The position numbers and the translations under genes are program-made. 60,501 nucleotides of DNA from a virus. Its lineage: Duplodnaviria; Caudoviricetes. How positions within the stretch are numbered: the first letter of the stretch is position 1; each line of letters starts with the position of its first letter. Shown piece after piece: positions 22,904 through 59,521 of this stretch. The notes under the pieces are model-generated. The model searched no databases. It worked only from the letters and a program-made list of their open reading frames with translations, and was not told the origin of the DNA. Location of the stretch: the IMG/VR virus record IMGVR_UViG_3300027996_000034, positions 1-60,501 of that record. One strand, written 5' to 3'.

Positions 22904-22933
22904 ATTATATGATGAAAATATTATTTGGATTCA
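22904..22933 (-). promoter_or_regulatory. Putative middle promoter TGAATC-N16-CATATAAT
   Basis: Matches the motif class. Confidence 0.6.
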
Positions 22934-24381
22934 AATTTAATTCCACCATGTTTGTTTCCAATCGTATCATCTACTAAGAAATGTCCGTCAAAGTTTGTTA
23001 GTTTAAACGCCTTTGATGGACTAACTATAATTCCTAAACGATCCATGAACTTTCTATTAGCTAAAGCTGGAGTTGATTTAGCGGTTCTATCTATAATTGA
23101 TATATCTACTTTAGGAACTAATTTTCCTGCAAATATTACATCTCGGTGTATAATAGGACGTTCATGTGTGTTACCATCCGTTCCAATCGCATTAGAAGTT
23201 CCAATTATTTTATCTTTAAATTGCTTACCATTTACTTCCCATTCTAAGTATTTTCCATTAACTTCGAATTTATCTCCATGTATAGTCATTGAAGATGCAC
23301 CATTTCCAGTGTCCATTTTAATAACATAATCTCCAATACCTGGAATATTTATGCATTCTCTGAATCCACAATACATTGTTGGGTATGTCCAATTTTCTTT
23401 ATTTAGAATATAGTCTAAAACTATACTAACCACCGGTTTCCCAGTAGCTTCAGTAATACCTTTAGTTCCTGGTGATGCATTGACTTCTAATATATACGGT
23501 TTTTTGGTTTTTTTGTCGATGATCAAATCAACTGCACACCATGTACAATCCAACACTTTTGCAGCATCTTTAGATATTTGAATCATCTCATCTGTTAAAT
23601 TTACTTTTTGTATTCCTCCACCGATAGAATAATTAGTCCTAAAATCCTTTTTAGCAGAGGTTCTTTTCATTGCTGCAATAACTTCAGATTCTTCATCATT
23701 AGGATTATAAAACTTTTTAGAAAGAACATGAATCCTTAAATCACCATCAGCTGGTATCATTTCTTGTAGTAATATCTCACTTTTTCCACTAGACTTCCAA
23801 AGTGTTTGTAACACAGATTTTAACGATGCATATGAATCTACTTGCGAAACTCCAATACCTTGAGAGCCAGAAAGAAGCTTTATAATAACCGGAAATTGGC
23901 CTCCAATATTTTTTAATGCTTTATCAATACCTTCAACATCCGTAAGAATAGAATTTTTTGGGGTAGGTAATCCAGCAGCCTCTAATATTCTATTGGTTGT
24001 ATTTTTATTTTCACAGTTCATTGTAGAATCTAACGTATTTACACAAAAGAAATTAAATGATTCTAGATCTTCTAATAATTGTTGAGTATACGTACTAGAC
24101 ACAATGCCTCGTCTTGACATTATAACAGTATTTGATCGATTGATAGCAATGGGTTTTGTATCAGCATCTCCTATTTTAATATCATTTCTTTTATTAACAA
24201 ATTCTTTTATAAATGCGGTATTAACATCTAATGCATAACATGGAACATTTCGTTTTTCACAATCTGCTTTTATTGAATCAACTGTAGATGATTTTGAATC
24301 AAGATTTGATAATATAATTACTTGAACTTTATTAAAAGATAAAGCTTCAGTTATTAGTTCGTAGTTTCCAAAATGTTTCAT
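22921..24381 (-). CDS. RimK-family ATP-grasp ligase fused to a C-terminal retropepsin-like (RimB-type) protease domain
   Basis: FPVIIKLLSGSQGIGV, LLQEMI, DFRTNYSIGG, AVDLI, ILEVNASPG; C-terminal KMDTG..ERPII..IDRT..LANRKFM. Confidence 0.88.
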   Translation of the reverse strand: MKHFGNYELITEALSFNKVQVIILSNLDSKSSTVDSIKADCEKRNVPCYALDVNTAFIKEFVNKRNDIKIGDADTKPIAINRSNTVIMSRRGIVSSTYTQQLLEDLESFNFFCVNTLDSTMNCENKNTTNRILEAAGLPTPKNSILTDVEGIDKALKNIGGQFPVIIKLLSGSQGIGVSQVDSYASLKSVLQTLWKSSGKSEILLQEMIPADGDLRIHVLSKKFYNPNDEESEVIAAMKRTSAKKDFRTNYSIGGGIQKVNLTDEMIQISKDAAKVLDCTWCAVDLIIDKKTKKPYILEVNASPGTKGITEATGKPVVSIVLDYILNKENWTYPTMYCGFRECINIPGIGDYVIKMDTGNGASSMTIHGDKFEVNGKYLEWEVNGKQFKDKIIGTSNAIGTDGNTHERPIIHRDVIFAGKLVPKVDISIIDRTAKSTPALANRKFMDRLGIIVSPSKAFKLTNFDGHFLVDDTIGNKHGGIKFESK

Positions 24382-24854
24382 TTATTCTTTATATATTTAA
24401 GAAATGTTTTTCTATCTCTATTTATCAAACGTTTGCAATGGTCTGTGAATGCAACTGAATTATTAAGTACTAATTCGCTGACCTTTTTTCCATCATCAGT
24501 ATAAGCATCATAACAAGAATCACAACAAAAATTTGATATTTTAAAATCTTCCATACGTGATTTAATATCGGTTTTGCAATAAGAACATAACCATGGTATT
24601 ATTCTAATCTCATCTAAAAGTTTACGTTTATCTTTTATTTCACCATCAGTTGGATCAATGAAAAATTTGCTTTTATTTTTTTCATAGTTTTCTTTATCTA
24701 TTAACATAAATAAAGCTTTAACGAAAGTATCATCTTCATAATGCTTCTTTATAAGCGGATATCTTACTAATACTTCTACATGCTGTGGCTTCAATCCTTT
24801 TATTTTAATTCCACATCTAGTTAGACTACTAGGTTTGCCTCTATGAATTTCCAT
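24378..24854 (-). CDS. Hypothetical zinc-finger protein
   Basis: CSYC..FCCDSC. Confidence 0.65.
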   Translation of the reverse strand: MEIHRGKPSSLTRCGIKIKGLKPQHVEVLVRYPLIKKHYEDDTFVKALFMLIDKENYEKNKSKFFIDPTDGEIKDKRKLLDEIRIIPWLCSYCKTDIKSRMEDFKISNFCCDSCYDAYTDDGKKVSELVLNNSVAFTDHCKRLINRDRKTFLKYIKNK

Positions 24855-27402
24855 TTACTGCATTTATCCATTTATCCCTAAATGACATTGACTCTTCTAC
24901 CTTTTTATCCTTTTTATCCTTAATTTCTTTAAAGAAGTTTTTAGTTACATTAATAGTAGGATACATAGGATCTTTAGGTTTATCTAAAGTTATTTGATAA
25001 ACTTCTTCTTCGCCTTCTCGTCTAGGCATATCTCCTTCTGGCTCTCTTTCATTTTCTAAAAATGAATGCGTGATTTTTCCAGTAGCATTATTTAAGTGGC
25101 CAAGATCTTTATCCGACATGTTGCGTAATGATACTTTTTTATTCATAAGTGGATTATCTTTATTCTCATCCTCGCTTTTGTCCATTAACTCTTTAGCAAT
25201 GGTATCCTCATCTTTTGGAATATCAGCATCGTCATCAGATGGACATTCATCTTTACCATCGGCTTCTTCATCACCTTTGGCCTTTTCTTTATCCTCTTCA
25301 GAAACAAGTTCTTTTCGTTTATTAGATTCAACTAATACTGATCGATATTCAATTGATACTGATTCTCCGATTGTAGCAAGTTTTTCTTTTGCATCCTCTA
25401 ATTTTTTCTTTTCAGTCTCTAATTTATTCTTAGCTTCTTCCTTTTTAGGACCTTCTTCCGCGTTTTCAAAATCAGTTGTTGCCTTTTCAACCGATTTTTG
25501 CTGTAACTCAATCAATGCCTGTTGAGCCTCTTTTTTAGCTTCAAGGTCCTTTTTTGCAGCTTCAGTATCTTCAACGTTTTGAGCGGCTAATTTATCGGTA
25601 ACTCCAGTTTTCGCTTTTTCTTTTTCGGCATCCGTTGCATCTACTGCAGCTATTGCTGCAGCATGATTTTTATCTGCAGTTTTTCCAGCACCTTCAATTT
25701 TAGGAGTAATTGCCTTAGCTTTCTTTTCTTTTGCTGCAGCATTTTTAGCCAATCCTTTATCAACTTGTTGTTTATCGATCGCGGCTTTAGTCATTAATGC
25801 ATCTCGCTCTGCTTCTAATTCTTCTTTTTTATTAGCGCCTTTTATTTTTGCAGCATAACCGGCTTTTAATCCCATCGCCTTTCCTCCTAAAGAGGTGGCC
25901 TTACCATCTTTATCTATACCGCTAACTCGTTGAGCATCCTGTTCAGCAGCCTCTTGTTCTTTATCTAACTGTTCAATCTCTTTATCTAGATCAGCCTTTA
26001 TCTGTTTTCTTTTCTCTGAAGCTTTAGGATCCGGTACTGTTTTTGCTTCCTCTTCTTTAATATCCGTTCGAAGTGCTTCGATTTGATCATCAAATTCCTT
26101 AGCCTTAGCTTCAATAGCTTCAGGCGTAGTCAATTCAGCTCGCTCCTTTTTAAGTTCACGTGCCTCATCCTCCTTCTTTTCAATATCCTTTTTTATCTTT
26201 TCAACATCCTCTTTAGCTTTTTGAAGTTTTTTAGTTCCTTCATCATTCAATTGAGCCTTTTTATCAGTAAGTTTTTTCTTTTCTTTAGTCCAAGCTTCTT
26301 TCTTTTTTGGGTCTGTTTCTTTAGCATTTTTGTCAACACCTGCTTGGATTTGTTTATCTATAGCTTCAAGTTCTTTTTTTAATGCTTCTTCCTCTTCCTC
26401 TTGCTTAGTTTTTACTTTATCTTGTGCAACTTGCAAGTCACCTTCTTCTCCACCTTCTTCTCCACCTTCTTCTCCACCTTCTTCTCCAGCTGGTGGATCT
26501 GGTTCTGCTGGTGGATCGCCTCCTTCAGGTGTATCCGTTTCTCCATCTGCTGGTGGATCTGGTTCTCCACCTTCTCCGGCCTCTTTTACAGACTCTTCTG
26601 GTGGATCTGGTTCTGCTGGTGGATCGCCTCCTTCAGGTGTATCCGTTTCTCCATCTGCTGGTGGATCGCCTCCTTTAGGTGTATCCGTTTCTTCTTCTGG
26701 TGTTTCTTCAGGCTCTTTTGGTAATGGATGATTTTTTGGATCTAAATCATGTAATGTCTTTTTTAAATCGTATATTTCTTTATCCATATCTGCCATTGCA
26801 TTAGGACCAGTGGCCTTTTTCTTATCATCTTCAAGCTTTGCTATTTCAGCTTCCTTATCCTTTTTGAATTCCTCATATTCCTCTTTAGTGATTGTAGGAT
26901 TGAGATCGTTTTCTTCTTTATATGATTGAACATCCGCTTCAGTCTTGGCCAATTTAATATCTTTTACCGCCTCCCACGCTTTTCGAATTTTTTTCTTCTT
27001 AAATAAAAATGCAATATATGCACCAATTCCGACAGCTGCAATCCCTACACCAGCTGCAGTTGATTTAATTGCGGTAGATCCCATTTGACCAATATCATCA
27101 TCCCATCCTTCAGTAATAGATTCAAAGACTTCAAATCTTTCATGTATAATTAAATCAATATCAAGAGTTTCAAACCGATTTTCTTCAATTAAATCAGATT
27201 CAATTAATAAATGTTTAATAGTATCTAAAGATTCAAATAATCCTCCAGATCCATCACCAACCGATTGAAGTAATAAAAATTTAATGATATTTGCAAATTC
27301 ATCTTCATCTAATTGTTTCAAATCTTCTTTAGTAGCAAGCCGTCTAAGACCTATTACCGCCTCGTTTATCTTAGTAAAATCTTCTAGCGAAATTATGTTC
27401 AT
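24841..27402 (-). CDS. Large acidic coiled-coil protein with one TM segment and P/G/E repeats; putative internal head/ejection protein
   Basis: 853 aa; N-terminal ISLEDFTKINEA leader; late motif at 27425; adjacent to the MCP gene. Confidence 0.6.
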   Translation of the reverse strand: MNIISLEDFTKINEAVIGLRRLATKEDLKQLDEDEFANIIKFLLLQSVGDGSGGLFESLDTIKHLLIESDLIEENRFETLDIDLIIHERFEVFESITEGWDDDIGQMGSTAIKSTAAGVGIAAVGIGAYIAFLFKKKKIRKAWEAVKDIKLAKTEADVQSYKEENDLNPTITKEEYEEFKKDKEAEIAKLEDDKKKATGPNAMADMDKEIYDLKKTLHDLDPKNHPLPKEPEETPEEETDTPKGGDPPADGETDTPEGGDPPAEPDPPEESVKEAGEGGEPDPPADGETDTPEGGDPPAEPDPPAGEEGGEEGGEEGGEEGDLQVAQDKVKTKQEEEEEALKKELEAIDKQIQAGVDKNAKETDPKKKEAWTKEKKKLTDKKAQLNDEGTKKLQKAKEDVEKIKKDIEKKEDEARELKKERAELTTPEAIEAKAKEFDDQIEALRTDIKEEEAKTVPDPKASEKRKQIKADLDKEIEQLDKEQEAAEQDAQRVSGIDKDGKATSLGGKAMGLKAGYAAKIKGANKKEELEAERDALMTKAAIDKQQVDKGLAKNAAAKEKKAKAITPKIEGAGKTADKNHAAAIAAVDATDAEKEKAKTGVTDKLAAQNVEDTEAAKKDLEAKKEAQQALIELQQKSVEKATTDFENAEEGPKKEEAKNKLETEKKKLEDAKEKLATIGESVSIEYRSVLVESNKRKELVSEEDKEKAKGDEEADGKDECPSDDDADIPKDEDTIAKELMDKSEDENKDNPLMNKKVSLRNMSDKDLGHLNNATGKITHSFLENEREPEGDMPRREGEEEVYQITLDKPKDPMYPTINVTKNFFKEIKDKKDKKVEESMSFRDKWINAVNGNS
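26441..26667. repeat. Coding repeats: 12-nt x4 (GGEE) and 70-nt direct repeat (26490-26559 / 26598-26667)
   Basis: Read directly from the sequence; encodes DPPADGETDTPEGGDPPAEPDPP twice. Confidence 0.9.
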
Positions 27403-27494: not shown

Positions 27495-29201
27495 TTAAGC
27501 TAATTGACCAGCATCGTTTTGAACACCGAACGACATGTACATAGTTTGTGGATGGAATCCAGCCTCAACTAAAGCATATCTAGATTTAACAGCGATTTTT
27601 GGCGCCATTGTACCTTCAGCAATAGTTTGAACAGATTCAGCCATTAGATATGGCATAAACACTAGTCCAGGAGAGTTTCCGTCACCTTTTCTACCTACAG
27701 TGATTCGAGTATCACTCCAGCTCATATATGGATCAACATAAACAACCAATCCAGCTAAAGTACCGATAGGGTACAATGAACCAGTTTGTTGGTTTAATGT
27801 ATTCATCATTGGAGCAGGAACGAATCCAGCACAATCTTGTAGTCCAGAACCAACTTGTCCGTTTGTTACTACAAATGTAGCAGGTCCACGTCTTCCTCGG
27901 ATAGCAATCAAGTTTCCAACCGCAAGGATCTTAGACATGATTTTTCTCTGACGAGTATGTAAGTTCTCTGCAGCTGAGTTAGTCTCAGAAGAATTAACTT
28001 GTGGATTTTGATCAAATAGACCAGGTAAAGCATCCATTGGGAATACTGAATTTCCACCAGTTACCCAATCAGATCCTCTAGAATCTAGAGTTGTTAATTG
28101 TGTTTGAGTAGAATAAAGACCACCAGTGGTAGTTCCAAGTAACAAGTTAAATTGAACGTTTTGCGTTGCAACAACTTGACCATGGTTAGTATAACCTAGT
28201 TTTCTAATTCTTGAAAGAATGTTCTTATTAATAGATTGAGTTAACTCGTTAATAAGTACTGACTCAACTTGAGCAACAGCATCTATACCGAATTGTTTCA
28301 AATCTTGAACTTGTTCTCTAGTAACTGCTGCAGCAACTTGGAAAGTTTGTGCCTCAATTGACTTATTGAATAAGCTTAAGTTCATTACATTCTCTTGATT
28401 AGATTCACCTTCTAGTCTTGACATCGGTTCGTTAGTATCATAACGATTTGATGAGAATCCTTGAACGTGATCTTCTAGAGCTTTTACTAAAACTGGTAAA
28501 CCAGCTAAAGTTACAATACCAGTACCACCACTTGCCCAAGTAAATGTTGTTCCTGCAGTTAAACCAGCAGCAACAGTTTGAGTAGCGTTAGCCATAGTAT
28601 CAACTCTAATAATATCGAATGCATCGATTCTAGATTCACCAACGTACATACCAGTAATACCTGTAGAAGTAACAACTACTTCTCCAGCAGATGGTGCAGT
28701 TGTTATGGCCCCTCCTGCAGGATCTGGTGTAATAGTACCATTAGATTTGATTAATAGTGGCATGTCCGGAGAAGCACCTCTATTTTGTGGAACTGGAAGA
28801 GCTCCGGTTTGTCCGATTGAAGGAACAAGTCCTCCACCGTAAACGAAGTCTAAGTATGTCAACACACCCATCGGTCCGTTCATTGGTACTACAGGTACTA
28901 GATCTAAACCAACAGTCTGTGCAGCAACTTGCATAGCAAGCGGAAGAAGAGTGTAAGGTTTATCACCGGAACCAGTAGTTTGAGTACCAAATCCAGATTG
29001 CAATCCAGGATCACCTGGGAATCTAGTAGCACCCATACCATTAACAGAACCAACTGTTGCAAAAGCATTATTCTCATACAACTCGTGGTTATGACAGTAT
29101 TTAGACATCCATTCTAATTTTCCTTTGTCCTCAATACCAGTAGTGGACTCGATAATTGGAGACCATTTTCCGTATATTTCGGATTCATTAATTAAATTCA
29201 T
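27495..29201 (-). CDS. gp23: Major capsid protein
   Basis: KWSPIIE, DLVPVVPMNGPMG, QDLKQFGIDA..LINELTQSINK, RRGPATFVV, GLVFMPY, KSRYAL. Confidence 0.95.
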   Translation of the reverse strand: MNLINESEIYGKWSPIIESTTGIEDKGKLEWMSKYCHNHELYENNAFATVGSVNGMGATRFPGDPGLQSGFGTQTTGSGDKPYTLLPLAMQVAAQTVGLDLVPVVPMNGPMGVLTYLDFVYGGGLVPSIGQTGALPVPQNRGASPDMPLLIKSNGTITPDPAGGAITTAPSAGEVVVTSTGITGMYVGESRIDAFDIIRVDTMANATQTVAAGLTAGTTFTWASGGTGIVTLAGLPVLVKALEDHVQGFSSNRYDTNEPMSRLEGESNQENVMNLSLFNKSIEAQTFQVAAAVTREQVQDLKQFGIDAVAQVESVLINELTQSINKNILSRIRKLGYTNHGQVVATQNVQFNLLLGTTTGGLYSTQTQLTTLDSRGSDWVTGGNSVFPMDALPGLFDQNPQVNSSETNSAAENLHTRQRKIMSKILAVGNLIAIRGRRGPATFVVTNGQVGSGLQDCAGFVPAPMMNTLNQQTGSLYPIGTLAGLVVYVDPYMSWSDTRITVGRKGDGNSPGLVFMPYLMAESVQTIAEGTMAPKIAVKSRYALVEAGFHPQTMYMSFGVQNDAGQLA

Positions 29202-29230: not shown

Positions 29231-30991
29231 TTATTTATTAAAGCGTCTTTTAAGTTCTTCCGTAACTGTGTCCATGTAAGCAGATGAAGTTTCGTAGTTA
29301 GAAGAATCATCAGATTCTTTTACTACTACTGTTTCGTTTATTTGCTCAGACGGATTATAAGCCCTTAGCTCACGGGTTGACCAGAAATGATCGATCTTGT
29401 ACTGTGTATCAAGAGTTCTCACCGATGCTTGAGCAGTAATAGAAGATTTTTGTGATTCGTTTATAGAATCCCAAGAACTTTTATATTTGCTCGGCATATT
29501 TTTTAGCCAATCGATTTTTGCTTCAGGCTCAACAAATACTGATTCCCATATTGCAGATGCATCAGTTGAACCGAACCACTCATTATTCTCAAATGTTCTA
29601 ATAACTTTCGCCTTAGTCTCATCATCAAATGATTTGTATTCAGTTCTCCTATCTTCATTTACAAAATGTAAGAAGTGAGTATTTGCAGAAGTTTCGTCCA
29701 CCTTTTGCTTCTTAGCGGATTCAACCAACGCTGAAATTTTCTCGTTTAATTCATTTTTGAATGTATTAGTTTCTATAATTAATTCATCAGCAGTTTCTTT
29801 AACTGTTTCTGATTCATTAATTGTTTCTCCAACATTTTTGGATTTGAAATTTTCATTCATTGTTTTAGAAACATAATCTTGGTATTTACCTAGATTTTCT
29901 ACATTATCTTTAACATACTCGGTATAATTAGCAACGGCATCAACACCTTCCATAACGTAATTAGAATATTCAATTACTTTATCTGTTTGTTCGTTTACAT
30001 AATCTTGATATCCGAAACGAGTATTTACATTTTCAGATATATGTTTAGAGTACTCAATGTTTTGATCGGTTTTAAGACCTACATATTCTGCATAATCTTT
30101 TACCTTTCCTAAATTTTCTATAATATAATCATTATGTGAAATAAGGCTATCAACATTTTCTGATAGATTCTCTACATAATTTCCGATTTGATTTACTCGT
30201 TTTGCAATAGCTTCTGAGTATTTAACTAAATCTGTATTTGCGGAAGCTTCATTTACCTTTTCAACTTCAGATTTTAATGAGTCAAAATTCTCTTTAACGA
30301 TTTTTGAATATTCGTTAAAATCTTCGACTGAAATAAAATTGCTGTTAGAATTAGACTCAGCTTCATTTATTGTTTCTTTTGGTGTAGTATTATCCATTGC
30401 TATTAATTCTTTTTGAATATCTGTATTAGTTTCTTCTATATATCCATTGATCTCGAAAATTCCTAGATTATCATCATCAACAAATCCATACTGTTCATTA
30501 ACTCGGTTGAGTTCTGCGTTTTCAAAACCAGGATCTGCAACTAAATCGTATGTAAATAATTTTTTAATTTTAACGTGGCCATTTTCTTGAACCACACCAG
30601 CAGCTCTACTAGAAATGTGTATTGGAATGCCACCATCAACAAGTGCTTGAGCTTGTTTTCCTGCGGTAGTATCTAATAACCGGATTTTTCCTCTAACAAC
30701 CTTGTTAGCTTTGTCATATGTTATTTCCTCAATAACATGAGATACATTTTGTAGAGAAATGTCAAATTGTTTTGGGTGATCTAATTCACCAAGAAGCTTA
30801 CCGCTTTTGAGTTTTTCTTGAAGACCTTCAATATGAGGCATCAACTCTTTCTCATCGTATATACGATTGTTCTTATTTTTTTTACCTATCTCAGAAAATA
30901 TTCCTTCTAATACATACTTGTCAGCGCCGGTTCCATTGGCTTCAAGTATACTAGTGGATCTTTCTAAGACTAATAATTTTGCGTCATTCAT
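29231..30991 (-). CDS. gp21: Prohead protease fused to scaffold/core (gp21-gp22-like)
   Basis: LEGIF..KNKNNRIY, LGELDHP, ISSRAAG, TYDLVADPGF, then ~400 aa acidic coiled coil. Confidence 0.9.
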   Translation of the reverse strand: MNDAKLLVLERSTSILEANGTGADKYVLEGIFSEIGKKNKNNRIYDEKELMPHIEGLQEKLKSGKLLGELDHPKQFDISLQNVSHVIEEITYDKANKVVRGKIRLLDTTAGKQAQALVDGGIPIHISSRAAGVVQENGHVKIKKLFTYDLVADPGFENAELNRVNEQYGFVDDDNLGIFEINGYIEETNTDIQKELIAMDNTTPKETINEAESNSNSNFISVEDFNEYSKIVKENFDSLKSEVEKVNEASANTDLVKYSEAIAKRVNQIGNYVENLSENVDSLISHNDYIIENLGKVKDYAEYVGLKTDQNIEYSKHISENVNTRFGYQDYVNEQTDKVIEYSNYVMEGVDAVANYTEYVKDNVENLGKYQDYVSKTMNENFKSKNVGETINESETVKETADELIIETNTFKNELNEKISALVESAKKQKVDETSANTHFLHFVNEDRRTEYKSFDDETKAKVIRTFENNEWFGSTDASAIWESVFVEPEAKIDWLKNMPSKYKSSWDSINESQKSSITAQASVRTLDTQYKIDHFWSTRELRAYNPSEQINETVVVKESDDSSNYETSSAYMDTVTEELKRRFNK

Positions 30992-31047
30992 GCGGAAAGA
31001 TTATTTTATCATTTTAATTATATATCTTCATCAATATATTGAAATTA

Positions 31048-35792: not shown

Positions 35793-36578
35793 TTATATAT
35801 CTTTGATTTTCTTTTGAATAATATATTCGTTGTTGATATCACCAGCTCCACCGTTAGAAAATGCTTTAGCTTCGTTCTTAATTGTTCCGATAACATTATA
35901 ATTTTCGAACAAACCATCGTCAAGCATTCCATCAACTGCTTTTTTAACACCAGGCGATTCTTTATGATCCATATAATCGTCGAATATTATTAGGCCACCA
36001 GGATTAACTGTTGCTTCATAGTTTTTAAAGTCTCGCTCAACCATATGTTTTGCATGTGATCCATCTATAAAGAATACATCAGCACCACCTGCCTTTTCAA
36101 TTGCAGCACAAGATTCTTTAATGATTTTAGGGTTATCTGATAGTCCAACAAATTTTTCTAAGGTTTGACCTTCGCTGATATATTTTGCTGTGTTATTATC
36201 GAACATTTTTTCTTGACCGGATTTAGCTTTGAATGGATCGATAGAAATATGAGATTTACCTTTTTTATTTTGAAGCATTAAGCACATAGATCCTCCACAA
36301 AAACTTCCAATTTCAGCAAATGTTTTATAGTCTTCTCCGAGCATTTCTGATAATGGATATGTTATATGAAAGTGATGGTGAAACGTATTTCCTTCCATAT
36401 CTTCACTTATTGATTGAACCATTTCAGAAGATTTCTTATATGATGGATGTTTAAGAATATCAGATTCTGTAAACATTTTAGTAGAAGATTTACCTTCATT
36501 CAATCCCCATTGTTCTACATCAGGGAATTGTTTATCATGCATTTCATTAAGAAAGTCTTTAAATGATAGTAATTTCAT
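35793..36578 (-). CDS. Class I SAM-dependent methyltransferase (Methyltransf_24-like) with capsid-targeting-like leader
   Basis: FAEIGSFCGGS, ISIDPF, VFFIDGSH, VNPGGLIIFDDY; leader MKLLSFKDFLNE. Confidence 0.85.
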   Translation of the reverse strand: MKLLSFKDFLNEMHDKQFPDVEQWGLNEGKSSTKMFTESDILKHPSYKKSSEMVQSISEDMEGNTFHHHFHITYPLSEMLGEDYKTFAEIGSFCGGSMCLMLQNKKGKSHISIDPFKAKSGQEKMFDNNTAKYISEGQTLEKFVGLSDNPKIIKESCAAIEKAGGADVFFIDGSHAKHMVERDFKNYEATVNPGGLIIFDDYMDHKESPGVKKAVDGMLDDGLFENYNVIGTIKNEAKAFSNGGAGDINNEYIIQKKIKDI

Positions 36579-36587
36579 ATTTGTATA

Positions 36588-38864
36588 TTATTTGTTAAAT
36601 CTATATTTAAGACCTTCAGTTACTGCATCCATATACGCATTTGATGTTGATTCTTCTTGTGGCTCTTCTACTTGAATTTCATCACCAGTTTTTGTATCTG
36701 TAATATTTTCAGTATCTTCAACCTCTTCACCATCATCGTCGATTGTAACCTCTTTAGTTTCTTTAACTGATTCGTTTTTCATATCCGAATAAAATTCTTT
36801 GAACATCTTTTCAAGTCCATCAAATTTTGCTCCTTGATCTTTAACGAAATCTTTTGCTTTTGCAATAAAATCCTTTTCATCTTTGGCCTCTTTAGCAAGT
36901 AAATGAAGTTCACTCATTGCACCATCATTAACCATTCTAGTAAGATCTTCGTTAGTTGTTGATTCGTCTAGTAAAATTTTCTTTAATTTTGCAAGTTTCT
37001 TAGAATCCTTTTCTAGTTCTTTAGTTGCAGCTGCAATTTTGGAAGAAGCATCATCACCACCTTCAGTAGCATCTTCAGGAGATTCACCATCTTTTATTTT
37101 AGATTCTGGAGAATCTTCACCGTCTGGTGCTGAATCATCAGGTCCTTGAGTTTCATCCTCATCACCATCTGCAAGATCATCGATCATATCATCAATATCT
37201 TCTCCATCACCTTCTTCAACTTGTAAAGTTTTTTTGTTAAGTTTTTCATTAACACGTTTAGCATCTAAATAAAATTCATTATTCTCAAATGTACCAGTTC
37301 TTAAATACTTACTTAAATCTGTAAAGTAACCTAATTCCTCTGGTGTCAATTTAGATTTGATATATTTTGCAATTTCCGCCATTTCTTTTGTACGTAATTT
37401 AGAGGCTGCTCGATTTTTTGCATTTGAAGTTCCCATATACGGTGTTAATTCCGCATACATTTTTTTCAGAACATCATCATTTTCAAATTTCTTAACGATT
37501 GGTTCTAATATTGCTTTTTTATCAGCTAATTTATCAGCAGCTCTTTTAGCAGCTTTTTTAGCATCGGCCTTTTCGGCAGCATTTACTATTGCCTTTCCAG
37601 CAACGATTGCAGCAACCTGAGCACCGTTGACTAATGCAATAACACCGACAACACCTAATACAATTCCACCAGCTATTGTTAAAACACCAACGGCTTCATC
37701 AATATTTTCATCATCATTAACCACATCACTACCTTGTAGTCCTAAAAGAAATGCAGCAGTAGCATCTTCAAATGTTTTCTTTTTTGCTTCATTAACTGAT
37801 TCTCTAATTCCAAACTTAGCTAGAATTCGAATAGCAGGAACCGCATTATCTTGATCACCATCACCCATGATTACTAATTTACCATTAAGTGTTCCAAATT
37901 CGATCTTATTTATCGTTAGCTCCTTATATAACTTTTTATTTACCGGGTCTTTTATTTCGAATTCCCAATCATAATTATTTCCTTTATCTAGTTTTTTAAC
38001 TTCGAAACCTTCATTAACTTCATCGTCTTCGTTAATATCTTTTAGAAACTTAGTTGCATTTTCTTCAAATGTAAGTTTTGCTTTTTTAGCTTCATAAACT
38101 GCAGCTCCATCAGGATCATAAGAAAATACCGCAGTACCACCTCTTCCATCTAATGCGATTGCATCTTCATTTGGATCTAATTCTTCAGCAGCACCAGAAT
38201 CATCATATTCCGCTAGATCTTTAACTTTACCTATTGCAATAACATTCCAAGTATCACCATTGTAATCAGTAGCTTTATCACCGATTTTAACTTTCTTAAA
38301 AGGTTTGATTTTTTTACCTTCATTAATTGATTCTTCAGATTCATTTAGGAAGTAATAAACTTCAATCCCATAATCATCAACTCTTAATACGTTTAATTTT
38401 TTACTGTAAGTTATATTACCAGCAACTTCAGCAGATAATTTAGGAAGTTTCTTATGAACCATTTCCCAATCCGATCCTTTTTTGTATTTTTCATACTCAT
38501 CACCAGATTCACTATCAGTTGCTTTAACATCTTTTATATTTTTAACTTTAAAGAATTTAGCAATTTCCTTTTTAACCGCAGTAGGAAAACTTGATTCTTC
38601 AGCATTGTACACATCTTCATTAACTGATTCGTTAACTTTCTTTTCTATGGTTATAGTTTCTGCCATTTCTTGCATAACTTTATCTATTCTCCAAGGAACA
38701 ACACCGATAGATGTTAAATAAGTTCGTATAATAGATTCATTCTTTCCTTCACCAACAAGTTTCTGTACTAGCGGTTTTAAAGAACCTGGTCCATAAAAGT
38801 TATATTCGCCTTTAGTAACGAGATTTTCATTTACAAAATCTTCAAAGCTTTTTAATTTACTCAT
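36588..38864 (-). CDS. Modular putative internal-head polyprotein with ESVNE repeats and scaffold-like C-terminus
   Basis: Leader MSKLKSFEDFVNE; ESVNED/ESINEG/DEVNEG/ESVNEA; C-terminus 15/19 identical to the scaffold C-terminus. Confidence 0.7.
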   Translation of the reverse strand: MSKLKSFEDFVNENLVTKGEYNFYGPGSLKPLVQKLVGEGKNESIIRTYLTSIGVVPWRIDKVMQEMAETITIEKKVNESVNEDVYNAEESSFPTAVKKEIAKFFKVKNIKDVKATDSESGDEYEKYKKGSDWEMVHKKLPKLSAEVAGNITYSKKLNVLRVDDYGIEVYYFLNESEESINEGKKIKPFKKVKIGDKATDYNGDTWNVIAIGKVKDLAEYDDSGAAEELDPNEDAIALDGRGGTAVFSYDPDGAAVYEAKKAKLTFEENATKFLKDINEDDEVNEGFEVKKLDKGNNYDWEFEIKDPVNKKLYKELTINKIEFGTLNGKLVIMGDGDQDNAVPAIRILAKFGIRESVNEAKKKTFEDATAAFLLGLQGSDVVNDDENIDEAVGVLTIAGGIVLGVVGVIALVNGAQVAAIVAGKAIVNAAEKADAKKAAKRAADKLADKKAILEPIVKKFENDDVLKKMYAELTPYMGTSNAKNRAASKLRTKEMAEIAKYIKSKLTPEELGYFTDLSKYLRTGTFENNEFYLDAKRVNEKLNKKTLQVEEGDGEDIDDMIDDLADGDEDETQGPDDSAPDGEDSPESKIKDGESPEDATEGGDDASSKIAAATKELEKDSKKLAKLKKILLDESTTNEDLTRMVNDGAMSELHLLAKEAKDEKDFIAKAKDFVKDQGAKFDGLEKMFKEFYSDMKNESVKETKEVTIDDDGEEVEDTENITDTKTGDEIQVEEPQEESTSNAYMDAVTEGLKYRFNK

Positions 38865-38897
38865 GTTTATGTAGTTATTTTATTTATATATTTATCT

Positions 38898-39797
38898 TCA
38901 TTCATTTTGTGGTTTATCGGGATCTGGTGGAGGTAATGGATTACTGTATCCTGATGGATCGATAGGCCATGCTGCATCTTGTGCTCCTCTAGATCCAACC
39001 CATAGGCCACTGGCATTAGGATTGAATGGATCAGTAACCGGAGTGAACCCGCCAGTTTGTGCAATATTTGTAGAGCTGCGGAATGCCTCCATAACCGTTC
39101 CAGCAAACATTTCAGTGTTATTGGGCCCTGAAAAACCGTTATCTTCATTTTTAAATATAGGCATAAATGTCTGTACCTCGATAGTATAATTTATTTTCCA
39201 TTCCTTTTTATCACCAAACGAAAATTCAATCGGTCTTTCTTTTGCAAAATCTTCAGGTAATTGAGCAACTGCTGGAATTCTAGTACCATCAATATCTATT
39301 TGGAAAACATTATTCTTATAAAATATCTCTATGGTTCTTTGAATTCCTTTAAATACATCTAAACTAGAATCAACATATAAATCAACCGTAAAACTTAATT
39401 TCAGTGGTACCATAAATACCTCAGAATTAAATGTTTGCAAAGTGCCATCATCTTGAACTCTTTGATAAAATGCTCTTACAAATTTATTTGTTAATGATCC
39501 AGCATCGATTGAGATACCATCTAATTGTAAAATTGCTCTAGGTAATTGATTGTATACCGATTCTGCACTAGTTGAATTAGTTCCACCAGCCGAGACGGTA
39601 TTCATAAACATATCCATCAAAAATCTTTCATCTCCAGTTGTACTGAAGTAAAATGGAACTTGTACTTTTTGTTTTTCGGTTGGACTTATTTGTTGGTACC
39701 ACCACATCCTATTGTTAAGGGTAGCTAGCACACCAACAATTATATTACGTAAAACAACGTCATCTTTATTAAATTCTAAATCGTAGAGTTGGGACAT
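38898..39797 (-). CDS. Tail terminator / sheath stabilizer (gp15-like)
   Basis: LRNIIVG..VQVPFYF..ERFL..LPRAIL..VPLKLSFTVDLY pattern; late motif at 39816. Confidence 0.7.
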   Translation of the reverse strand: MSQLYDLEFNKDDVVLRNIIVGVLATLNNRMWWYQQISPTEKQKVQVPFYFSTTGDERFLMDMFMNTVSAGGTNSTSAESVYNQLPRAILQLDGISIDAGSLTNKFVRAFYQRVQDDGTLQTFNSEVFMVPLKLSFTVDLYVDSSLDVFKGIQRTIEIFYKNNVFQIDIDGTRIPAVAQLPEDFAKERPIEFSFGDKKEWKINYTIEVQTFMPIFKNEDNGFSGPNNTEMFAGTVMEAFRSSTNIAQTGGFTPVTDPFNPNASGLWVGSRGAQDAAWPIDPSGYSNPLPPPDPDKPQNE

Positions 39798-54246: not shown

Positions 54247-56742
54247 TTATTCTCCCAATGCTTCGATATCCCATTGAATTCTTTCTAATGGATCTTCATC
54301 ATTTGTTCTGTTCTTCTTCACCCAATCAACAAGACCTCTTTCCATAGTAGCATTTTGTGCCATATCATATGAATGTTTCCATCCATCGCCGGAAGCCATA
54401 TCTTCAATCCATTGATCATATTTCTTTTGATTCCATTTTACTGGCTTTATCTTCTTAGCATGGGGTCCATTACCTAAAGTTGATTTGATTGCATTGTAAT
54501 GATTCGGGACAAATACATCCACTGCCCAATCTTCGTCTCTTTTATTACCATTCCAATACTTAATCTTCTTTCTGAATCTTTTTAATTCGTAATCAGCATT
54601 TTCAATCTTTTCTTTTCTAGTAATGCCACCTCGTTTATATCCAAATGATAACTTCATATCATCTAATATATCTGGATCTGTTTCGAAATGAAGGTCTTTA
54701 ATATCAACATTATCATATTGGCCTTCATTAACTGATTCTTCATTAACATTAACTCCCTTTCTTTTAGCATACTTTTCAACATCTCTTAAAAGACCTAGTA
54801 GTTTATTTTTATCTAAATCTTCTTCATCGTTATTCAGTTCTTTTTGAAGATTATTCATTAAACTCTTCATGTATTTTTTTACACCGGAATCTAAATCACC
54901 CTTATCTATGTTGGTTTGTATAAGGTTAACAAGTTCTAAAACATCTTCCTTTTTTAGATTTTTAGCAGCTTGTTTATCCTTGAACTTCTTTTTATAGTGT
55001 CGAACTACGTCTCCCCAACTATCTCCAGGAAAGAACGCTCCTGGACTGACAATCATGCCGGGACCCATCACAGCAAATATTACACCTGCCATTAACCCAA
55101 CTCCTCCAGCTAAAGCTAATAAAGGTTGCCACCATTCAAAACCTTCATTAACTGAGTCATGAGCTTGTATTGAAGTTTCGATTGCTTCTTTAGCCTTTTT
55201 AATATCACCATTAAAGTATGCTTTTGCTAATTGATACAAAACTATATCTGATGGTATTTTACCAGATTTTCCAATTTTAGAAATTTCATCATCACCTTTA
55301 CCTTCATTAACTGATTCTGTTATAGAGTTACCAGTCTTTTTTACTTGATGTCCATCCATTGCATAGAATCGCATATCTTGGAAGTCAACTAAATATTGCT
55401 CATCCGATTCATAGCTTATTAATAGTCCTTTTTCACCTTTCTTAATAGTCATTTTAGTTCCAAAATAATCGAAGGTTTTTGTTGGTGCAATCCACTCAAC
55501 CTCTTCGTATTTTTTACCTTCATTAACTGATTCTTTCAAATCTGTTAATTTTATTACACGTTTCTTACCATCGAAAGAAACAAAATAAGATTTATCATCT
55601 GCTGCCGTTAAGTGATATCCGAATGATTTACCCCATACCTCTTTTGCCTTTTTAAGATCTGAGCCATAAAAATATTTTTCAAGACCCGATGTACTTTTTA
55701 TTGTTTTAGGAACTTTTACCTTGCCTTCATTTAAAGATTCTCCTACAAATGCATTGAACTTCAAAAAATTGTAAATATTTTTTGCTTGTTTTTCATTTTC
55801 CTCTTCATCATCAGTTAATTCGCTTGATGCTGCTAAATCACCAGAACCAGTTTCCTGAGTTGAAAATTCTGCTTGAGTTCCAGGATTTCCAGGCAATGAA
55901 ACATTACCCATTCCATTAACACTTCCTGGAGTTGCCATTGCATTATTTTCTTCAATCGCATATCTCATAGCTTCTGCATATGCAATTGCTTCTTCAAGAT
56001 GTTTATTTGATGATTCTTTTACCGCCATACCACCATTCTTTTTCATATATTTCTTAACGGTGGATCTCCATTTTGTATCAACATTTGTAACTGTAACTCG
56101 ATTACCAACTTGATCGCCTATACCAATTGCAGAATTTTCAATATCTAAATCAAATTGACGTGCACTTTCTTCATCAGGGAATTCAAATATTACACTTAAA
56201 CCTTCATCGACCGATTCATCAAACAATGTTTTTGCACGTGGAAATGTTAAAGATTTACCAAGTTCTCTATCATGATCCTTTTTCATCTCTAGATAATTCC
56301 AAGGAGATATCCAACCAGTTTCTTGCGCTAATTGAACTGCAAGATCAAAGGGTTTCATAGGCTTTGATAAAGTAACATTGAATCTAGGTGAAGAGTATCT
56401 ACCTTCCATATCACCTTCCACTATTTTATATTTTCCTTTTGGGATAACTTTAATTCGTTCGAAAGGTTTTCCAATTCCAACTATACTTACCGTTTTATGA
56501 TCTTTGTATCTTTTTTCTGCGTTCTTTTTTATTGGATCATCATATGCTGCTTCATCTACCGAATCTTCTAATTTATTTGGTAGCGTTTCTTCTGGAGTTT
56601 CTGCGTAATCTTTCAAATCGGCTTCTTTCTTTTTGGATAAATCTCTTATTTTCTGATCAACCGTGGATGCATCAACTTCACCTCGCTTAACTGCTAAGGC
56701 TAGTCCGAATAATTTCCGTTGAGCTTTTGATACTGCTGGCAT
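54247..56742 (-). CDS. Modular putative internal-head polyprotein: DUF3008-like N-terminus, ESVNEG repeats, embedded copy of the MCP N-arm
   Basis: MPAVSKAQRKLFGLALAVKRGE start; seven (E/D)S(V/L)(N/D)E(G/A) motifs; residues 265-302 are 26/38 identical to MCP residues 43-80. Confidence 0.7.
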   Translation of the reverse strand: MPAVSKAQRKLFGLALAVKRGEVDASTVDQKIRDLSKKKEADLKDYAETPEETLPNKLEDSVDEAAYDDPIKKNAEKRYKDHKTVSIVGIGKPFERIKVIPKGKYKIVEGDMEGRYSSPRFNVTLSKPMKPFDLAVQLAQETGWISPWNYLEMKKDHDRELGKSLTFPRAKTLFDESVDEGLSVIFEFPDEESARQFDLDIENSAIGIGDQVGNRVTVTNVDTKWRSTVKKYMKKNGGMAVKESSNKHLEEAIAYAEAMRYAIEENNAMATPGSVNGMGNVSLPGNPGTQAEFSTQETGSGDLAASSELTDDEEENEKQAKNIYNFLKFNAFVGESLNEGKVKVPKTIKSTSGLEKYFYGSDLKKAKEVWGKSFGYHLTAADDKSYFVSFDGKKRVIKLTDLKESVNEGKKYEEVEWIAPTKTFDYFGTKMTIKKGEKGLLISYESDEQYLVDFQDMRFYAMDGHQVKKTGNSITESVNEGKGDDEISKIGKSGKIPSDIVLYQLAKAYFNGDIKKAKEAIETSIQAHDSVNEGFEWWQPLLALAGGVGLMAGVIFAVMGPGMIVSPGAFFPGDSWGDVVRHYKKKFKDKQAAKNLKKEDVLELVNLIQTNIDKGDLDSGVKKYMKSLMNNLQKELNNDEEDLDKNKLLGLLRDVEKYAKRKGVNVNEESVNEGQYDNVDIKDLHFETDPDILDDMKLSFGYKRGGITRKEKIENADYELKRFRKKIKYWNGNKRDEDWAVDVFVPNHYNAIKSTLGNGPHAKKIKPVKWNQKKYDQWIEDMASGDGWKHSYDMAQNATMERGLVDWVKKNRTNDEDPLERIQWDIEALGE
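54722..55533 (-). repeat. Dispersed 17-nt in-frame repeat GAATCAGTTAATGAAGG
   Basis: Exact at 54722, 55301, 55517; one mismatch at 55142; one-mismatch copies also at 37786, 38317, 38614. Confidence 0.9.
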
Positions 56743-59047: not shown

Positions 59048-59521
59048 TTATGAGGTCATCGTAGTAAACCAAGACTCATCTGCTGAAGCTGAAAAATTCT
59101 TTTTGATATATTTTTCCATATCTTTGTATCCTTCAGGATCTTTCTTTTGCATAATATCTAATACCTTTCCTAATCCCATTTGCATGACTTTATCGTCAAA
59201 TTCTTCATGGTCTTCGTTTTTAGCAGCCTCTTCAATTTCAATTTCGATTTCTTCTTCACCTTCAGATGAATCTTTCATTTTTTTAGCAAGCGTAGCGGTT
59301 TTCTTTTTCTTTGCTTTATTTTCAGCTTCTTTCTTTCCATCTTCAGCTTCTGCATCTAATTCTTCTGGTGGTGTAGTTGGGCCTTTTGAAGCATCAGCCA
59401 TATCATCAGCTAATTGTTCTTCGTCATCTTTAGGTGCACCCATTTTGTTGATAGTTTTTTCAATTTCTTTAGCAGTTTTTGATTCTGTTAAGAATTGATC
59501 ATACGACTTAATGTGTTTCAT
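59048..59521 (-). CDS. Acidic/basic low-complexity protein with capsid-targeting-like leader
   Basis: MKHIKSYDQFLTES; late-type motif at 59545. Confidence 0.7.
   Translation of the reverse strand: MKHIKSYDQFLTESKTAKEIEKTINKMGAPKDDEEQLADDMADASKGPTTPPEELDAEAEDGKKEAENKAKKKKTATLAKKMKDSSEGEEEIEIEIEEAAKNEDHEEFDDKVMQMGLGKVLDIMQKKDPEGYKDMEKYIKKNFSASADESWFTTMTS

Follow-up and report, generated by a model that had tools for sequence, protein, structure and literature searches.

The scaffold of phage P22 has its capsid-protein-binding peptide at the C-terminal end. The tail of the HK97 protease reportedly brings the enzyme into the prohead, and the cargo proteins of encapsulins carry short C-terminal peptides that bind the inside of an HK97-fold shell. 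Encapsulins use different peptide sequences and have neither scaffold nor protease; they serve here as a working analogy only. The present study concerns a 19-residue C-terminal tail shared by two proteins encoded in a 60,501-nucleotide DNA stretch of a virus of the Caudoviricetes (IMG/VR record IMGVR_UViG_3300027996_000034, positions 1 to 60,501), hereafter called the window. One of the two proteins is a head protease fused to a scaffold. The other is a modular protein of 758 amino acids (aa).

In phage 80alpha, the last 16 residues of the scaffold form an 11-residue helix and a 5-residue hook containing RIIK, and sit on the N-arm of the capsid protein (PMC5644958). As described in the same source, the SaPI1 protein CpmB has a homologous end, binds the same site of the capsid protein and competes for it. 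In herpesviruses, every scaffold, the protease-scaffold fusion among them, uses its C-terminus to bind the capsid protein, and this end is cut away by the protease at the M site (PMC12474303). The herpesvirus protease and the S77 phage protease are assigned to the same superfamily (PMC9026906). In T4, the capsid targeting sequence on IPII and IPIII and the propeptides of IPI and Alt are cut off by gp21 after L/I-x-E (PMC9026906, PMC9958956). C-terminal processing among T4 head proteins is reported in PMC9026906 for gp21 and Alt only. In phage SPN3US, gp245 has a 64-residue C-terminal propeptide that was proposed to target the protease to the centre of the prohead (PMC7411985, PMC10052503). How proteins reach their positions in the T4-type scaffolding core is to this day described as “mysterious” (PMC9958956).

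In the window, the genes are on the minus strand. The 758-aa protein (P0001; 36588..38864) ends in TSNAYMDAVTEGLKYRFNK, residues 740-758 (36591..36647, minus strand), followed by the stop codon at 36588..36590. The protease-scaffold (P0002, 586 aa; 29231..30991, minus strand) ends in TSSAYMDTVTEELKRRFNK, residues 568-586 (29234..29290, minus strand), followed by the stop codon at 29231..29233. The two tails are identical at 15 of 19 positions without a gap, and both run straight into the stop (BLASTP E 3e-5 as a single comparison). When all pairs of the 54 minus-strand open reading frames (ORFs) of at least 80 aa are compared, the identity of the C-terminal 19-mers is 15 for this pair and 0-6 for the remaining 1430 of the 1431 pairs. 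A six-frame scan allowing up to 9 substitutions in 19 residues found only these two copies in all 60,501 bases. No further similarity between the two proteins was detected by BLASTP (other segments E 0.04 or worse), and a profile-profile comparison of the two families aligned their last 22 columns only (hhalign; E 0.0014, probability 17.8%). An earlier reading made from the sequence without database searches (the sequence-only reading) had claimed the 15/19 identity and the absence of any other similarity. Translation, BLASTP and the six-frame scan confirmed the first claim, and the second holds in both the BLASTP and the profile comparisons. The coordinates of that reading are correct for the reverse complement; frames on the plus strand give nonsense translations.

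The DNA of the two tails is identical at 40 of 57 nucleotides (nt), and 8 of the 15 common residues are encoded by different codons. The tail match is therefore not a recent DNA copy. The same codon divergence is observed in the four other contigs that hold both genes (L060, L063, L075 and L076), and contigs of two other seawater DNA runs match the tail region without a difference. A protein match that persists with synonymous divergence indicates selection acting on the protein. Judged from its sequence, the tail is a discrete, selected module common to two otherwise unrelated proteins.

The scaffold tail is old. The motif Y-M-x-x-V-x-x-x-L-[KR]-x-R-F is kept in each of the 18 related scaffold ORFs whose 3’ end is complete (22 viral-contig scaffold loci were examined; the other four are cut at the 3’ end). 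The scaffold of the 462-kb phage LR756500.1 terminates in MKRRFNK. We also examined the 150 best of 3924 scaffold homologues in a 50%-identity library. Among these 150, 24 match a loose form of the motif, and a basic-hydrophobic pair is present within the last 9 residues in 95 of the 142 long ones. A hidden Markov model (HMM) of the tail was built from 24 distant scaffold tails, none from this window, and searched against 299 ORFs of the window and of T4, syn9, pT24 and PAU loci. It matched both window tails, with independent E-values (i-E) of 5.7e-10 for the scaffold and 8.9e-8 for the 758-aa protein; the next best match has an E-value of 0.066. All 20 tail-bearing members of the 758-aa family were matched as well, including those with an overall identity of only about 35%. 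Residues Y744, A747, V748, E750, G751, L752, K753 and F756 do not vary among 18 aligned members, the lowest overall identity there being 46%.

This conservation bears on the idea that the shared tail has no role in assembly, being either a leftover of cassette shuffling or a device for a task after ejection, such as contact with the host or a membrane. The ends of the 758-aa family are indeed swapped as cassettes, contigs that skip cassettes occur in populations, and the 758-aa protein carries a hydrophobic stretch, as do some ejected proteins. Such an origin is hard to reconcile with a motif that persists with synonymous divergence and keeps eight invariant residues, and with a scaffold tail conserved far beyond the close relatives of the clade. 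Moreover, the T4 scaffold is described as degraded in the head, not ejected (PMC9026906, PMC9958956). We consider a tail without assembly role very improbable.

The 586-aa protein joins a head-maturation protease to a scaffold. There are matches to Peptidase_S77 (PF03420; E 9e-11, residues 26-137, 42.1 bits against a cut-off of 27) and phrog_207 (E 2e-38 over residues 13-561), and its sole sequence match in the PDB is the T4 gp21 protease (5JBL, E 0.0024). Residues H72, S127 and S128 are invariant in 66 aligned homologues and are candidates for the catalytic His and Ser. An AlphaFold2 model of the fusion was calculated from the 66 homologues (mean predicted local distance difference test score, pLDDT, 74.7). 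It contains the protease domain, residues 27-165 (pLDDT >90), then a disordered linker, long helices in region 222-383 and a confident helical domain from 404 to 539. Region 555-568 has a pLDDT <50 and is followed by a separate terminal helix, residues 570-584 (pLDDT about 76-81), which corresponds to the tail. In the model, the scaffold tail is therefore a helix that stands free at the terminus, on a flexible tether.

Two [LIV]NE sites frame this architecture, one at residue 166, directly after the protease domain, and one at residue 553, 33 residues before the end. The density of [LIVMF]NE sites in the scaffold is 1.88 per 100 aa. An xNE occurs among the final 60 residues in 109 of the 142 scaffold representatives of at least 450 aa, mostly at a distance of 13-38 residues from the C-terminus. 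N-E is preceded 817 times by L, V or I and 67 times by T, which ranks next, and is followed most often by S, N or K. These preferences fit a T4-like cleavage motif.

How far the tail extends beyond the two proteins was examined in several ways. A degenerate DNA pattern of the motif gave 29 matches in viral contigs, 16 in scaffolds and 4 in the family of the 758-aa protein (the putative cargo family). The other nine comprise seven copies of an unrelated 31-codon ORF and two internal chance matches. The 31-codon ORF, with the peptide ...YMMLVTEWLKSQF..., is present in seven unrelated viral contigs (L028, L030, L034, L038, L047, L052 and L055) and looks like a small repeated element whose DNA matches the pattern by chance. 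The tail profile, applied to 2914 ORFs from 689 kb of related loci, retrieved 41 scaffold and 19 cargo-family ORFs or fragments and nothing else. In the whole records of relatives of 144, 133 and 462 kb the tail is on the scaffold only, and in a 77-kb relative record it is on both the scaffold and the cargo protein. A search limited to shorter proteins returned members of the 758-aa family only. Thus, no third tail-bearing family was found in the DNA pattern scan, the 689-kb profile scan, the four whole records or the shorter-protein search. In these searches, the scaffold and one cargo family are the only carriers.

Of 28 members of the cargo family, 8 have no such tail; their C-terminus is formed by a DUF3175 (PF11373) module (Pfam E about 1e-8). 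These ends match positions 42-84 of the 86 positions of Pfam DUF3175. We considered the possibility that the DUF3175 end is a degenerate form of the tail and rejected it: none of the eight DUF3175-ending members is matched by the tail profile. Members with identical first 75 residues carry either the tail or the DUF3175 end (P0024 and P0025 compared with P0026, P0027 and P0029; loci L067, L068 and L071). The C-terminal end is therefore an exchangeable cassette, in line with the “transplantable” tag of the sequence-only reading. P0029 contains a degenerate internal tail-like stretch, then extra modules.

The 758-aa protein itself has no Pfam or PHROG match, and tblastn against named phages gave none. 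The ESM Atlas returned no usable match, and the model stored there has a mean pLDDT of 0.48. In metagenomic protein collections, 31 relatives were found. Their alignment shows conserved ends and modules, with whole cassettes gained or lost. The conserved parts are the first ~75 residues, region ~190-260, an invariant acidic block at 540-580 and the last ~16 residues. In a family member of 326 aa, leader domain, acidic block and tail are all retained and the middle is much shorter. The N-terminal leader, MSKLKSFEDFVNE (38826..38864, minus strand), ends in V-N-E and resembles by eye the T4 capsid-targeting sequence. The protein has 9 [LIVMF]NE sites, i.e. 1.19 per 100 aa, and of the 52 ORFs other than this one and the scaffold, 50 range from 0 to 0.8; a pattern also admitting K at the first position gives 11 sites. 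The last site of the protease type, SDMKNE/SV (E698; 36771..36773, minus strand), lies 60 residues before the end in a segment that belongs to the majority consensus of the aligned family, and would be cleaved after E698. A box with the sequence TATAAATA, the T4 late-promoter consensus, is located 17 nt upstream of the ATG (38881..38888, minus strand). Because of the leader, the [LIVMF]NE sites, the late-promoter-like box and the position in the head gene block, the 758-aa protein looks like a prohead-internal substrate of the protease. It would be a polyprotein, possibly ejected, that the head protease cuts up inside the prohead.

A Gly/Ala/Val-rich hydrophobic stretch is present at residues ~388-430 (37575..37703, minus strand); the Kyte-Doolittle values of 19-mer windows peak there, at residue 394. 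Of the 14 members aligned, only this ortholog has the cassette. A different hydrophobic cassette is located at another place in four other orthologs. Within the 758-aa gene, stretches of 509, 558 and 121 bases (37803..38313, 38069..38628 and 38753..38875, respectively) are missing from contigs of two other seawater DNA runs, which suggests cassette variants in natural populations. Parts of the gene are also represented in two RNA-library contigs: X14 spans 36627-36825 and has 7 differences, and X23 spans 38689-38866 and has none. They are no proof of transcription. The upstream regions of the 758-aa gene (38865..38910) and of the scaffold gene (30992..31047), both on the minus strand, share TGAAGATA...TATA(A)AT, and this common element may be the late promoter of both genes.

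The similar upstream elements, the location of the gene in the head block and the richness in protease-type sites, which the scaffold shares, would also suit a 758-aa protein that is an auxiliary or competing scaffold, not cargo; by means of the copied tail it would claim some of the sites of the scaffold and thereby shape the size or geometry of the capsid or the placement of core material. CpmB, the one solved second protein with the C-terminal motif of a scaffold, acts by competition (PMC5644958). The highly variable middle, with its gains and losses of cassettes and its hydrophobic cassettes, is however unlike a scaffold that sets geometry. In addition, close relatives do without the tail, and the leader is common to an enzyme-like ORF, which points to cargo. 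A competing scaffold is in our opinion quite unlikely.

The enzyme-like ORF encodes a protein of 261 aa with a methyltransferase domain (35793..36578, minus strand; PF13578, E 8.7e-15) and begins 9 nt past the end of the 758-aa ORF. Its leader is MKLLSFKDFLNE. The leader pattern is found in 3 of the 54 minus-strand ORFs, those of 758, 261 and 157 aa, where it ends in VNE, LNE and LTE, respectively. The 157-aa ORF (59048..59521, minus strand) has the leader MKHIKSYDQFLTE. An 853-aa ORF located after the capsid gene (24841..27402, minus strand) has a looser leader, MNIISLEDFTKINE. The 261-aa, 157-aa and 853-aa proteins are possible packaged proteins. In relatives, many small ORFs arranged in runs begin with MKNLxSFxEFVN. 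Residues 220-227 of the scaffold, ISVEDFNE, resemble SFEDFVNE in the leader of the 758-aa protein. In Sphingomonas phage PAU (L059, 1054..2638), gp152 (scaffolding), gp153 and gp154 share a leader MKT[IL]..LYEA, and gp153 and gp154 (annotated as internal capsid protein) continue with KLNEA after it. The PAU leader is another lineage-specific leader common to a scaffold and other proteins.

These features lead us to propose the following mechanism. While the prohead assembles, the terminal helix of the scaffold would keep hold of the capsid protein on its inner side, the docking site being the gp23-like capsid protein's inner face or N-terminal part. The leader would take the 758-aa protein into the core, and the C-terminal copy of the tail would let it occupy the docking site of the scaffold. 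Held at both ends, the 758-aa protein would be anchored, or loaded, in the prohead until cleavage frees it, and the head protease would cut it into modules at its many [LIV]-N-E sites. That the tail docks to some component of the prohead is probable. The capsid protein is proposed as the partner by analogy, because the C-termini of 80alpha scaffold, CpmB and herpesvirus scaffolds bind capsid protein. A tethered end helix with a protease-type site some dozens of residues before it, closing a protease-scaffold fusion, is an anatomy that we see again in these two systems with known partners. We give an even chance to the more specific claim that the scaffold tail has been copied as a peptide for docking in the prohead and that the capsid protein is its partner. 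The major capsid protein of the window (568 aa; 27495..29201, minus strand) matches PF07068 (Gp23, E 3.2e-36) and T4 gp23 structures (E 1.3e-5). Its N-terminal 45 residues are largely invariant in 52 homologues and contain, in this sequence, 8 acidic and 4 basic residues. Among the last six residues of the tail, four are basic in the scaffold and three in the 758-aa protein.

The tail could also dock in the prohead to a partner other than the capsid protein, namely the helical body of the scaffold, the portal, or the protease domain, as an exosite ligand or a substrate, much as T4 gp21 and SPN3US gp245 process C-terminal ends of their own. The C-terminal processing of T4 gp21 and Alt, whose propeptides may target the enzyme into the core (PMC9026906), and the proposal made for the SPN3US gp245 propeptide (PMC7411985) agree with such a partner. 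A V-T-E within the tail is compatible with a site of the L/I-x-E type, but its glutamate is not kept in all related scaffold tails: those of L017 and L018, for example, end in YMEAVHAGLKKRF. Furthermore, the two systems whose partner is known, 80alpha and herpesviruses, use the C-terminal end for the capsid protein in the accounts cited above. A non-capsid partner thus seems unlikely to us.

Several observations weigh against a docking tail that addresses cargo to the capsid protein. The sequence-only reading saw the tail as a cargo address. This interpretation is partly supported: the tail is discrete and conserved, and it lies where the scaffolds of the systems cited above have their capsid-protein-binding peptide. 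Carried by two families only in the profile and pattern scans of relatives, the scaffold and one cargo family, the tail is not a general address. The phages with the DUF3175-ending version keep the scaffold tail, so the tail is dispensable for the 758-aa family in some lineages. No co-variation between cargo and scaffold tails is visible in the 5 contigs holding both. The hydrophobic moment of the tail (Eisenberg, 16-mer) is reached by 2764 of 5000 cargo shuffles and 514 of 5000 scaffold shuffles and is not above shuffles; hence the term “amphipathic helix” draws only on the spacing of the conserved Y, V, L and F at i, i+4, i+8 and i+12. The C-terminus of T4 gp21 (DDAYMALAEAMKKAL) is similar to the tail by eye, and homology between them is not supported by the profile, which gives it 1.3 bits and E 6.4 among the 299 ORFs. 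T4 ipII and ipIII begin with MKTYQEFIAE (record NC_000866) and have K-[ST]-[YF]-x-[ED]-F-[IV]-x-E in common with the leader of the 758-aa protein, a likeness judged by eye. Finally, the window shows no enrichment of TATAAATA, with 7 copies against an expected 14, and only the position of the box is suggestive.

A bolder extension of the docking mechanism would make the 758-aa protein a “pseudo-scaffold” tethered at both ends, by its leader in the scaffold core and by its tail copy at the scaffold site of the capsid protein, and incorporated in fixed proportion to the scaffold. It would be cut into modules, some of them membrane-active, that are ejected, and the tail would be an exchangeable shell address, replaced in sister phages by a DUF3175 end. 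We regard this as a doubtful scenario. If true, it would provide a second, C-terminal code for addressing cargo in T4-related phages, and one that sequence would reveal.

As a fragment, the window comes from a large marine phage that is uncultured and related to T4, of the lineage of Lak and other “huge” phages, Tenacibaculum phage pT24 and PAU. Its nearest named relatives are uncultured “huge” phages, among which LR756500.1 has 38% identity for the scaffold and 49.7% for the capsid protein. Further named relatives are Lak phages, Tenacibaculum pT24, Sphingomonas PAU, and Chryseobacterium and Flavobacterium phages. The DNA of the window is seen again in seawater metagenomes. The protease-scaffold gene sits between a T4-type portal gene (PF07230, E 2.2e-70) and the gp23-type major capsid gene. 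The block after the capsid genes also contains an ORF for a RimK-like ATP-grasp protein (22921..24381, minus strand; PF08443, E 7e-29), whose PHROG is named ribosomal protein S6 glutaminyl transferase.

The sequence-only reading had also mentioned a copy of the arm of the major capsid protein. This copy is real: residues ~283-324 of an 831-aa ORF (54247..56742, minus strand) match residues 39-80 of the major capsid protein with 62% identity over 42 aa (blastp E 3.6e-13 among the window ORFs). Residues 39-80 begin at the likely maturation site of the capsid protein, and the 831-aa ORF has 6 [LIVMF]NE sites.

The N-terminal targeting sequence is the only defined address for the core of T4-type proheads. 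A C-terminal copy of the scaffold tail would be a second one, acting by scaffold mimicry, and would link T4-related giant phages to the logic of herpesviruses and of 80alpha and CpmB. The 16-residue peptide is directly testable by co-expression in a prohead system and, if the tag works, would give a handle for loading large capsids. The kind of arrangement is already known, as a C-terminal docking peptide of a scaffold or protease with a copy on a second protein. The setting appears to be new: a giant phage related to T4 has the copy on a leader-bearing polyprotein rich in protease sites, where another end can take its place. We found no description of such a tail copy in T4-related or jumbo phages in the literature, subscription papers not being covered.

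Compared with the T4 targeting sequence as described in the sources cited above, the tail is likewise a short terminal peptide that would address unrelated proteins to the prohead core, and the leader of the 758-aa protein is also N-terminal. The T4 sequence is N-terminal, whereas the tail is C-terminal and a copy of the scaffold end. The resemblance to SPN3US gp245 is that the C-terminal end of a head protease is proposed to bring the enzyme into the prohead. In SPN3US, the C-terminal propeptide is on the protease only and the 8 other substrates have N-terminal ones (PMC10052503); that source mentions no second bearer of a copy.

The fusion resembles herpesvirus UL26/UL26.5, as these are portrayed in the cited accounts, in having an N-terminal protease fused to a scaffold with a short end tail. 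Sites 166 and 553 of the scaffold, where cleavage is predicted, mirror the herpesvirus R and M sites. The herpesvirus tail-bearers are nested products of one gene, whereas the second bearer in the window is the product of an unrelated gene 5.6 kb away.

With 80alpha and CpmB, as presented in PMC5644958, the locus shares a motif of about 16 residues at the extreme C-terminus, made of a short helix and then basic-hydrophobic-x-basic residues (here R-F-N-K). In both cases, the scaffold shares its motif with another protein of the assembly system that otherwise differs from it. Binding is solved in 80alpha and proposed here, and we do not claim homology. CpmB is a satellite protein whose competition makes the capsid smaller, whereas here both genes are in one phage and the second protein is a modular, leader-bearing protein of 758 aa.

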